A stretch of 64,000 nt of DNA. Origin: Nitrospirota bacterium (GTDB lineage Bacteria > Nitrospirota > Nitrospiria > Nitrospirales > NS-4). Under the pieces are notes generated by a model. It did not search any database. It was not told the DNA's origin and saw only the letters and a program-made list of their open reading frames with translations. Location of the stretch: assembly GCA_005877815.1 (NCBI GenBank), contig VBOG01000098.1, positions 13,188 to 77,187 on the forward strand, in the 5' to 3' direction. Below, one piece after another: positions 44,349 to 50,486 of the stretch. The position numbers and the translations under genes were made by a program. The first letter of the stretch is position 1. Each line of letters opens with the position of its first letter.

Positions 44349-46115
44349 GTGGCCGAGACGAAAAAAACACCTGGGCGGCTGAGTTCCATTCGGAATACCG
44401 TCAAGAAATTGACCGAGCGCCTGTCCGACGAGCACCCTGAGGAGGACGGCATGCAGGATAATCAGAGAGAGAAAGAGAAGCTGTTAGTCCAGATCCGGTC
44501 TCTCGAAGAGGAAGTGCGCCGGCTCAATCAGGCTCGCTCGCAGTTGGAGCAGGCGCACAAGCAAAATGACCGGCTGGCGGAGGCCCTGCAGGAAGCCAAA
44601 GGCCGGATTGAGGCGATGCGGGCCGAGGTGGAGAAGCTTACCGCCCCGCCGTCCACCTATGCCATCTATTCCAGCGCCAACGATGATCACACCGTCAACG
44701 TCTACGTCACGGGCCGGAAGATGAAGGTCAATGTGCATCCTGCCATCAAGGTCGAGGAGCTACGCAAGGGTCAGGAAGTCATCCTGAACGAAGCGCTCAA
44801 CGTCATCGAGAGCCGCGGGTTTGATGTGCAGGGCGAGGTAGTGCGTCTCAAGAACACCCTGAACGGAAAGCGCGTTGCGATTACGTTGCGAACAGATGAA
44901 GAACGTGTGGCAGAACTCGCCGAGCCATTGCTCTCCCAGCGACTCAGCGTGGGCGATCATCTCCTTTATGATGCCCGGTCGGGCTACCTGCTCGAGAAAC
45001 TCCCAAAGTCCGAGGTCGAAGAACTCGTTCTGGAGGAAGTGCCGGACATCAGCTATTCTGATATTGGAGGGCTGCGCGAGCAGATCGAACAAATCCATGA
45101 CGCGGTGGAGCTGCCCTTCCTTCATGCCGACCTCTTCAAAGAGCACAAGTTGCGCGCCCCGAAGGGCGTGCTGCTGTACGGCCCTCCGGGATGCGGCAAG
45201 ACGTTGATCGCGAAGGCGGTGGCGAACTCGATCGCCAAGAAACTGGGGCATCTTACCGGGAAGGATATCCGGAGCTTCTTCCTGCACGTCAAGGGTCCCG
45301 AGCTCCTCAACAAATACGTCGGGGAATCCGAGCGCCAAGTCCGGGAGGTCTTTCAGAAAGCCAAAGAGAAGGCGGATGACGGGTACCCGGTTATCGTGTT
45401 CTTCGACGAAATGGATGCCCTGTTCAGGACCCGGGGCAGCGGCATTTCCTCGGATATCGAATCCACGATCGTGCCGCAGTTCCTTTCCGAAATCGACGGC
45501 GTGGAGCGGCTGCGCAACGTCATCGTCATCGGCGCCAGTAACCGGCAGGATCTGATCGATCCGGCCGTTCTTCGTCCGGGACGTCTGGACGTGAAGATCA
45601 AAATTGACCGGCCCGACAAGACGGCGGCGAAGGATATTTTTTCCAAGTACTTGGCCAGCGATCTGCCGTGGCATCAGGACGAGTTGTCCCGGGATGGCGG
45701 CGATCCGATAAAAGTGGCCGAGCGGCTGATCGGCGTAACGGTGGAGGCCATGTACGCGTTGACCGAAGAGAACCAGTACCTCGAGGTCACCTATGGGAAC
45801 GGCGACAAGGAGACCTTCTACTTCAAGGATTTTTCAAGCGGCGCGCTGATCGAAGGCGTCGTATCCAGGGCGAAGAAGTATGCCATCAAGCGTCTGCTGG
45901 CGTCTGGCGAACGGGGCATCAAAGCGGAAGATCTCATCAAGGCCGTACGGGATGAGTTCAAGGAGCATGAGGATCTTCCGAACACAACGAACCCAGACGA
46001 CTGGGCCAAGATCGCGGGGAAGAAGGCTGATAAGATCGTGCATGTCCGGACGATCACGGCCGGGTCCCAGGAATCGCGGCGCATCGAAACCGTCACGACC
46101 GGCCATTATCTCTAA
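44349..46115 (+). CDS. arc: Proteasome ATPase ARC/Mpa
   Basis: N-terminal coiled coil, double [41 protein letters not shown]-terminal GHYL. Confidence 0.97.
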
Positions 46116-46121
46116 GCTGTC

Positions 46122-48420: not shown

Positions 48421-49110
48421 ATGGCACTCCCGTATTACGTCTCGCCAGAACAAATGATGGCCGACAAGGCCGAGTATGCCAAGAAAGGCATCGCGAAGGG
48501 CCGTTCGATCATCGCCATGGAATATGCCGATGGCGTCTTGCTCGTGGCCGACAATCCCAGTGCATCGTTGCACAAGATTTCAGAGATGTACGATCGAATG
48601 GCGTTTGCTGGGGCCGGCAAGTATAATGAGTTCGAGATGCTGCGTAAGGCTGGCATCCGTCATGCCGATCTGAAAGGATACATGTACAGCCGTGAGGACG
48701 TCACCGCGAAATCTCTTGCGAACGCGTATTCTCAGACCATTGGGACTGTGTTCAGCAATGACCCGAAGCCATTGGAAGTCGAAATCCTCGTGGTCGAAGT
48801 CGGCGAGGGGGAGAAGCTGAATGAGATCTACCGCATTTCCTTTGACGGCAGCATCATTGATGAGCGGGGCGTGGCCGCGATTGGCGGCAAGGCGGAAGCC
48901 TTGATGGCGTACCTCAAAAACCGGTGGTCCACGCCGTCGGTGTCTCTGAAGGAGGCGCTTCGCTTGAGCATTGAGGCGCTGGACACGATCACGAGCCAAA
49001 AACTCGGCGCCGACGTACTTGAGGTGGCGGTCTTGGATCGGACGCGTCCAGGACGGACATTCAGACGCATTACACCCACGGAAATTGGCTCGCTTCTGAA
49101 AGTCTCATGA
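48421..49110 (+). CDS. prcA: 20S proteasome alpha subunit
   Basis: PYYVSPEQMMADKAEYAKKGIAKGRS, KISEMYDR, KPLEVE, LEVAVLDR. Confidence 0.96.
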   Translation: MALPYYVSPEQMMADKAEYAKKGIAKGRSIIAMEYADGVLLVADNPSASLHKISEMYDRMAFAGAGKYNEFEMLRKAGIRHADLKGYMYSREDVTAKSLANAYSQTIGTVFSNDPKPLEVEILVVEVGEGEKLNEIYRISFDGSIIDERGVAAIGGKAEALMAYLKNRWSTPSVSLKEALRLSIEALDTITSQKLGADVLEVAVLDRTRPGRTFRRITPTEIGSLLKVS

Positions 49111-50486
49111 AGCCGCGGATTTTCGGCCTTGAGAACGAATACGGGCTGATTTTCTCTCCGAACGGCCGGATTTACCTCCCCATCGAAAAAGTCCTCGGGT
49201 ATATCTTCGAAGGCTTGATTCCCAATAGTTGGCCCTCCAACGCCTTTCTCGTCAACGGCGCGCGGTTCTATCAGGACACGGGTTGCCATCCTGAGTATTC
49301 CACGCCGGAGTGCGACAATGTCGAAGACCTCGTGATCCACGACAAGGCCGGCGAGCGGCTGTTGGAAGCTTGTCTGCCGGCTGCAGAAGAGCGGCTTCGG
49401 GAGGAAGGCCTGTCAGGAGAGATCTATATCTTCAAGAACAATACGGATTCGTTGGGCAACACGTACGGTTGCCATGAGAACTTCCTGATGCGGCGGGACG
49501 TGGATTTCTGGAAAGTGACGGAGCAGTTGATCCCGTTCTTTGTGACCCGCCAGGTGTTTGCCGGCGCTGGTAAGGTGCTGAAGCTGTCCGGGAAGACGCA
49601 GTTGTGCCTGTCGCAGCGGGCGCAGCATATTCACGAAAAGACATCTTCCTCAACGACATCTTCACGCAGCATTATCAACACCCGCGATGAGCCGCATGCC
49701 GACGCCGAAAAATATCGGCGTCTGCATATCATCGTCGGTGATTCGAACATGTCGGAGGTGGCGACGTTTCTCAAGGTCGGCACGGCGGCGTTGGTGCTGT
49801 CCATGATTGAAGACGGTTTTACCGTCCCGGGCATCGAGCTCGACGATCCGGTAAAGGCGATTCGCGAGATCGCGCGCGACACCACGCTAAAGAAGAAAAT
49901 CAAGCTGGAAGATGGACGCGAGTTGACGGCGCTTGAGATTCAACGGATGTATCTCGAGCGGGCGATGGAATATCTGTGGTCCATCGAGGAAGACCCCGTG
50001 GAGGCGGAGGTCGTTCGCCGCTGGGGGACGGTGTTGGACCGCCTGGAAGACGATCCGATGCAGCTTCGGCATGAGGTGGATTGGGTCATTAAAAAGCATT
50101 TGATGATGGAGTATATGGAGCGGAAGGGCTGTGGATGGGACGATCCGCGCATCCTGCTGATGGATCTGCAATACCATGATGTGAAACGCACACGGGGCCT
50201 GTATTACCTGCTTGAGAAACGCGAGTTGGTGGAAAAATTGGTTCCGGAAGAGCAGGTGCAGCGGGCGATGTTCACGCCTCCGCAGACGACCCGCGCCAAG
50301 GTCCGCGGCGATTTCATTCGCTTCGCCAGGGCCAAGAACCGCTCGTACACGGTCGACTGGACCTACCTCAAGCTCAACGGCTATTGGGAAGAGACGATTC
50401 TCTGCATGGATCCGTTCAGCGCCTCCAACCGACGCGTCGAGGAATTGCTCTCACAGGTCGGAGGGCAGCGCGCGTTTCGAACGTGA
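49107..50486 (+). CDS. pafA: Pup/UBact-protein ligase PafA
   Basis: IFGLENEYG, NGARFY.D...HPEYSTPEC, KNNTD..GN.YGCHEN, NTRDEPHAD, DLQYHD. Confidence 0.94.
   Translation: MKPRIFGLENEYGLIFSPNGRIYLPIEKVLGYIFEGLIPNSWPSNAFLVNGARFYQDTGCHPEYSTPECDNVEDLVIHDKAGERLLEACLPAAEERLREEGLSGEIYIFKNNTDSLGNTYGCHENFLMRRDVDFWKVTEQLIPFFVTRQVFAGAGKVLKLSGKTQLCLSQRAQHIHEKTSSSTTSSRSIINTRDEPHADAEKYRRLHIIVGDSNMSEVATFLKVGTAALVLSMIEDGFTVPGIELDDPVKAIREIARDTTLKKKIKLEDGRELTALEIQRMYLERAMEYLWSIEEDPVEAEVVRRWGTVLDRLEDDPMQLRHEVDWVIKKHLMMEYMERKGCGWDDPRILLMDLQYHDVKRTRGLYYLLEKRELVEKLVPEEQVQRAMFTPPQTTRAKVRGDFIRFARAKNRSYTVDWTYLKLNGYWEETILCMDPFSASNRRVEELLSQVGGQRAFRT

Follow-up and report, generated by a model that had tools for sequence, protein, structure and literature searches.

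In the typical order of a Pup-proteasome locus, pup, the gene of the protein tag, lies between dop and prcB, an arrangement that does not in itself define the biochemistry of the system. Mycobacterium tuberculosis has this order (mpa-dop-pup-prcB-prcA ... pafA), and the UBact system of Gram-negative bacteria (dop-UBact-prcB-prcA-pafA) shares this architecture, with paralogous enzymes. In early surveys, pup was described as ‘invariably’ adjacent to a gene of the PafA family (Iyer et al., 2008; PMC2588565), and the order of the locus was called ‘rigidly conserved’, with Leptospirillum as the example from the Nitrospirae (Barandun et al., 2012; PMC3511204). Here we analyse a stretch of 64,000 nucleotides (nt) from a bacterium of the order Nitrospirales (contig VBOG01000098.1 of assembly GCA_005877815.1), hereafter the window. 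At positions 44349-50486 of its plus strand, it carries arc/mpa, dop, prcB, prcA and pafA packed back to back, with the gene of an M23 peptidase next to them and no pup among them. Our analysis makes it very probable that these genes belong to a standard Pup-proteasome system whose tag gene is unlinked, the system being split into two transcription units.

The dop-prcB junction leaves no room for a tag. Intergenic gaps measure 6 nt between arc and dop, 5 nt (CCGCG) between dop and prcB and 2 nt between prcB and prcA, while prcA and pafA overlap by 4 nt (ATGA). Order, gaps and overlaps, including the M23 gene at the end, are as described in the original prediction, which had been made from the letters of the window. 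Its statement that the operon lacks a tag gene also holds: a scan of the window's contig found no frame ending in GGQ or GGE, and the window contains no open reading frame (ORF) for Pup or UBact. A remnant of pup in the junction was considered and rejected as impossible in a 5-nt gap. From this absence it had been proposed that the tag was relocated, replaced by an unrecognised modifier, or lost, with the implication of a different substrate. Relocation was borne out; replacement and loss were not.

The relocated gene was found with the Pfam Pup model, run on all 204 contigs of the assembly (2.65 Mb, completeness 92.9%). There is a single match above the cut-off, at G000:C138:16921-17118 on the minus strand, scoring 72.5 to 74 bits with PF05639 (cut-off 27) and 59.5 bits with TIGR03687 (cut-off 41.45). 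The ORF, MEKQEKKTDAKRSAPAKEEAKANPKVVDTGKKLKEEMDHLVDEIDDVLEENAEEFIKNYVQKGGE, encodes 65 amino acids (aa) from an ATG at C138:17118 with GAGGG ahead of it, or 67 aa from a GTG further upstream, and ends in ...FIKNYVQKGGE. Its C-terminal half, LVDEIDDVLEENAEEFIKNYVQKGGE, is almost identical to that of mycobacterial Pup in the loci that we fetched (...LLDEIDDVLEENAEDFVRAYVQKGGQ). Two six-frame scans of the genome, one for frames ending in GGQ or GGE and one for small acidic ORFs ending in GE or GQ, returned no other credible tag. With pup found elsewhere in the genome, the supposedly tag-less operon becomes a case of rearrangement. Nothing supports a different modifier or substrate.

Compared with the M. 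tuberculosis system, the same six components are present at the equivalog level with their catalytic motifs kept, the enzyme genes follow the same order, and the last 26 residues of Pup hardly differ from those of Actinobacteria. The differences concern the position of pup, here a unit of its own outside the operon instead of a gene between dop and prcB, and some details. Pup ends in GGE instead of the GGQ of M. tuberculosis, an ending shared by many Actinobacteria (27 of the 72 sampled); the C-terminal tail of ARC reads GHYL instead of the GQYL of Mpa; and pafA lies directly 3' of prcA, unlike in M. tuberculosis. Since Pup ends in glutamate, PafA should, by established Pup biochemistry, be able to ligate it without prior deamidation.

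One alternative is that the operon has no cognate tag, employs a modifier not yet recognised or serves a different substrate, and that the Pup of contig C138 is unrelated to it. This would fit the lack of a tag gene in or close to the operon and the place of pup among unrelated genes (hppA, recJ and relA). However, the genome holds only two genes of the Pup_ligase family, the dop and pafA of the window, and therefore the C138 Pup has no other possible ligase. The half of Pup that binds PafA and Mpa is almost identical to that of experimentally studied Pups, the scans left no other credible small acidic ORF ending in GE or GQ, and pup decays or vanishes in relatives that have lost the operon (see below). 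A UBact gene can be set aside as well. The best match of the UBact model (NF033388) in this genome reaches 17.5 bits (E value 0.013) on an unrelated contig and contains an internal stop codon; we rejected it as a sub-threshold match. In 10/10 relatives that carry a second operon of the UBact type, this model reaches 74-79 bits, which makes the negative result meaningful. Taken with these findings, an operon estranged from the C138 Pup appears highly improbable.

Many Nitrospirales genomes contain such a second, paralogous proteasome operon with UBact between dop2 and prcB2 (for example G012:C154:15506-20213, G004:C7:64115-68793 and G024:C1:~934148-935165; L225-L228), so that genomes with two operons have an unlinked Pup system and an operon-linked UBact system side by side. 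The genome of the window and its closest genera (g1, g2, g4 and g5) have the Pup system only, with no second operon. The two types can be told apart by score: PrcB of the UBact-type operons reaches about 170 bits, below the equivalog cut-off for the Pup system, whereas PrcB, PafA and Dop of the window pass theirs. The window's operon is thus of the Pup type, in a genome with neither a UBact gene nor a second operon.

The separation of pup from the operon is a feature of the whole order. Among relatives, metagenome-assembled genomes (MAGs) of Nitrospirales come closest, with a PafA 95% identical, along with Nitrospira species at 82-85%. All 80 related loci from Nitrospirales and Nitrospira, complete genomes included, show arc-dop-prcB-prcA-pafA(-M23) with dop followed directly by prcB after a short gap, and none of the 80 has pup within 7 kb of the operon. 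At the same time, exactly one Pup above the cut-off was found in 118 of the 121 genomes of the order, and PrcB in 119. The distance between pup and the primary prcB could be read off in 53 genomes, which have both on a single contig, and in every one it lies between 45 kb and 1.9 Mb; family f2 typically has 45-64 kb, and genus g8 of family f3 typically has 87-130 kb. The Pup proteins themselves have been well preserved: the GGE or GGQ end is kept in 53 of 54 from Nitrospirales (44 GGE, 9 GGQ), as is the conserved helix region. In one g8 genome, whose operon is intact, Pup is interrupted by a duplication or insertion (…ALGENAVKENAAEFVKNNVQKGGE; L205, G091:C1:2460094-2460300) and scores only 43 bits, possibly as a tag in decay or a variant of it.

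This distribution bears on the possibility of an assembly or binning artefact, in which pup was dropped at the dop-prcB junction or contig C138 came from another organism. The genome is indeed a fragmented MAG of 204 contigs, and C138 is just 18 kb long. Nevertheless, the pup-less junction recurs in 80 independent assemblies, complete chromosomes among them, so that the junction is no product of mis-assembly; single-contig genomes of the order have pup and operon distant from each other on one chromosome. Moreover, the closest MAG, La5-N1, repeats the arrangement, with the operon (L004, PafA 95% identical) and an hppA-pup-p174-recJ segment (L084, hppA 98% identical) on separate contigs. Nor do the GC fractions differ much (C138, 0.603; C70, 0.587; whole genome, 0.579). 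The pattern across the order and the situation in La5-N1 therefore exclude both mis-assembly and mis-binning, and we give an artefact almost no credence.

Outside the order, the canonical arrangement prevails. We compared two sister orders of the class (G212, G225), families f10, f14 and f15 of other classes in the phylum, which were sampled by whole genome, two more MAGs from Nitrospirota (L091, L095) and Actinobacteria; every outgroup locus that spans the operon reads arc-dop-pup-prcB-prcA-pafA, and in the sister orders and other classes the pup in the canonical slot encodes 64-70 aa. One short contig (G151, family f19) departs from this, with pup directly 5' of a lone gene of the Pup_ligase family and no arc, prcB or prcA on the contig. 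The operons of other Nitrospirota, both in sister orders and in other classes including the Leptospirillum type, are orthologous to that of the window. The PafA proteins of sister order f5 (L211) and of the unclassified Nitrospirota locus L091 show 74-76% identity to that of the window, both loci have M23 downstream, and the sister-order genome G212 likewise combines a PafA about 76% identical with a downstream M23. These lineages retain pup between dop and prcB, whereas Nitrospirales do not. The assumption that the tag normally sits in this slot is thus correct for Actinobacteria and other lineages of Nitrospirota, and fails for every sampled member of Nitrospirales. Because the outgroups keep pup in the operon, the simplest reading is that pup was relocated once, and cleanly, in the stem of Nitrospirales.

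Two genomes of genus g9 provide a natural case of co-loss of the two unlinked partners. G016 (96% complete) has no gene of the Pup_ligase family, hence neither Dop nor PafA, and no PrcB; between its hppA and recJ there remains a remnant of pup (L204, G016:C79, about 23736-23873) that scores 28 bits, lacks a start codon and ends in GRG. In G004 (98% complete), which has only the UBact-type operon and lacks the Pup-type one, no Pup-like sequence was detected in the hppA-recJ interval of 580 nt (L229, G004:C1). Pup has therefore been lost or has decayed where the operon was lost, a pattern that connects the unlinked gene with the operon.

In the genome of the window, pup is preceded by hppA (H+-pyrophosphatase, PF03030) and followed by four genes in the same orientation, including those of a 174-aa protein, recJ and the bifunctional relA/spoT. 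The context hppA-pup-recJ-relA was found in all four families of the order (f1 to f4), in a sample of 6 loci from genome contigs, 30 loci from genome searches and 17 further regions. The gene of the 174-aa protein (G000:C138:16400-16924, minus strand; L003) encodes a signal peptide, and its start overlaps the stop of pup in GTGA, an overlap also seen in further genera of f1 (L208, L209). It is restricted to f1; in f2 to f4 recJ lies directly 3' of pup. The protein matches no Pfam or NCBIfam model, and with this narrow distribution we did not accept it as a component of the system.

Tag and machinery appear to be two independently promoted units, as judged from promoter consensus and conservation. 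In 52 Nitrospirales loci, the region 5' of pup contains a common CTTGACG-N17-GTAnGnT motif together with a Shine-Dalgarno sequence, GGAGG, at a column conservation of at least 80%; the promoter match in this genome is TTGACC-17-TATGCT at C138:17197-17169. Upstream of arc, 64 related loci share GTTGACC...TGnTAGAATC, with an extended -10 element, at the same level of conservation (at least 80%). In the window, the predicted operon promoter overlaps the final bases of thiE (43584-44270), which together with thiG (42809-43600) forms a pair of thiamine biosynthesis genes directly 5' of arc.

It is tempting to ask whether the new position of pup has a function. The relocated gene might have a proteasome-independent or additional regulatory role, its position upstream of recJ-relA/spoT tying the supply of the tag to starvation or the stringent response instead of to the expression of the proteasome. 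Pup has indeed kept its place directly 5' of recJ-relA, in the same orientation, across four families, its promoter is conserved and distinct from that of the operon, and pupylation without degradation is known from actinobacteria that lack the proteasome (PMC3511204). Conserved synteny may nonetheless be mere inheritance, a few genera have lost the adjacency of hppA or recJ (L196, L197, L198, L200), and the co-loss of pup with the operon argues for a canonical main role. We regard such a role as rather unlikely. In the same vein, the move of pup could have been an adaptive rewiring that set tag supply apart from the levels of ligase, depupylase and proteasome, for instance under starvation or the stringent response, a proposal that we consider doubtful.

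Returning to the standard Pup-proteasome system as our preferred explanation, all of its components are encoded in the genome: Pup, PafA, Dop, Mpa/ARC and the 20S core of PrcB and PrcA. What departs from the typical locus order is the 5-nt dop-prcB gap, with pup on another contig. The operon enzymes look intact, and the motifs cited in the original prediction could all be located. ARC contains both OB domains and the AAA domain (Pfam Prot_ATP_ID_OB_N, Prot_ATP_ID_OB_C and AAA), the Walker A motif GPPGCGKT and the GHYL tail. Dop can be aligned over its whole length with its Acidothermus counterpart (4B0R, E value 2e-141), including the Dop-specific N-terminal insertion, and keeps GTETEFG and YVDGAHPEYSTPEC with the catalytic aspartate. 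Residues 3-450 of PafA align with PafA of Corynebacterium glutamicum (4B0T, E value 2e-112), with GLENEYG, YQDTGCHPEYSTPEC with the catalytic aspartate and YQDTG conserved; HPEYSTPEC is found in both Dop and PafA. In PrcB, the propeptide cleavage site PHG/TTILAI (the slash marks the cut) would expose Thr1 after a propeptide of ordinary length (50 residues). All five family calls for the operon are based on NCBIfam equivalog models with their curated cut-offs (Table 1).

Table 1. Positions of the operon, its junction, its predicted promoter and the adjacent M23 gene in the window
Feature	Position	Strand	Basis
Predicted promoter of the operon, sigma-70-type with extended -10 (TTGACC-17-TG-TAGAAT)	44267..44295	+	Consensus scan, 10/12 matches
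arc/mpa, proteasomal AAA+ ATPase, 588 aa	44349..46115	+	TIGR03689, 744.8 bits (cut-off 504.75)
dop, depupylase/deamidase, 492 aa	46122..47600	+	TIGR03688, 551 bits (cut-off 492.3)
dop-prcB junction CCGCG, site of pup in other lineages	47601..47605	+	Read from the sequence
prcB, 20S proteasome beta subunit with propeptide, 270 aa	47606..48418	+	TIGR03690, 308 bits (cut-off 191.9)
prcA, 20S proteasome alpha subunit, 229 aa	48421..49110	+	TIGR03691, 321 bits (cut-off 139)
pafA, Pup-protein ligase, 459 aa	49107..50486	+	TIGR03686, 561.2 bits (cut-off 551.3)
M23 peptidoglycan metallopeptidase, longest ORF, true start uncertain	50384..51409	+	PF01551, 107 bits

The M23 gene lies 3' of pafA in nearly all related loci, in one locus of a sister order and in one unclassified Nitrospirota locus. 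In the window, the last 100 nt or so of pafA (50384-50486) also belong to the longest M23 ORF, and the tblastn alignments of relatives mostly begin inside pafA too.

The course of events that we propose is as follows. In the stem of Nitrospirales, pup would have been excised from its ancestral slot between dop and prcB, and today it is found, in the same orientation, with hppA on one side and recJ-relA/spoT on the other. The operon arc-dop-prcB-prcA-pafA, followed by M23, would be transcribed behind its conserved extended -10 promoter, and pup from its own conserved sigma-70-like promoter with a Shine-Dalgarno sequence. By homology with studied systems, the deamidation step of Dop would be unneeded for a Pup that ends in GGE, PafA would join the C-terminal glutamate of Pup to lysines of substrates, ARC/Mpa would bind Pup and pass the substrates into the PrcAB 20S core, and Dop would take Pup off again.

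Several points weigh against this view. The co-occurrence of Pup and PrcB is broken in four MAGs, two without Pup (G026, G056) and two without primary PrcB (G047, G076), which we attribute, without proof, to incomplete assemblies. The promoters of pup and arc are consensus predictions. The assembly of the window's genome is fragmented, with pup and operon on separate contigs, and at 92.9% completeness a second system could lie in unassembled DNA.

We found no description of an unlinked pup in Nitrospira in the literature searched, and the arrangement is unusual and apparently undescribed. The gene is recognised by standard annotation models and so is not hidden in public annotations; searches and annotation pipelines based on gene neighbourhood would miss a tag that is unlinked. 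Our results correct the notion of a tag-less pupylation system at this locus. They also make every sampled family of Nitrospirales, to which comammox bacteria and major nitrite oxidisers belong, an exception to the earlier statements on the invariable adjacency of pup to a gene of the PafA family and on a rigidly conserved locus order. These bacteria thereby offer a natural case for asking whether the expression of the tag and that of its enzymes must be coupled.

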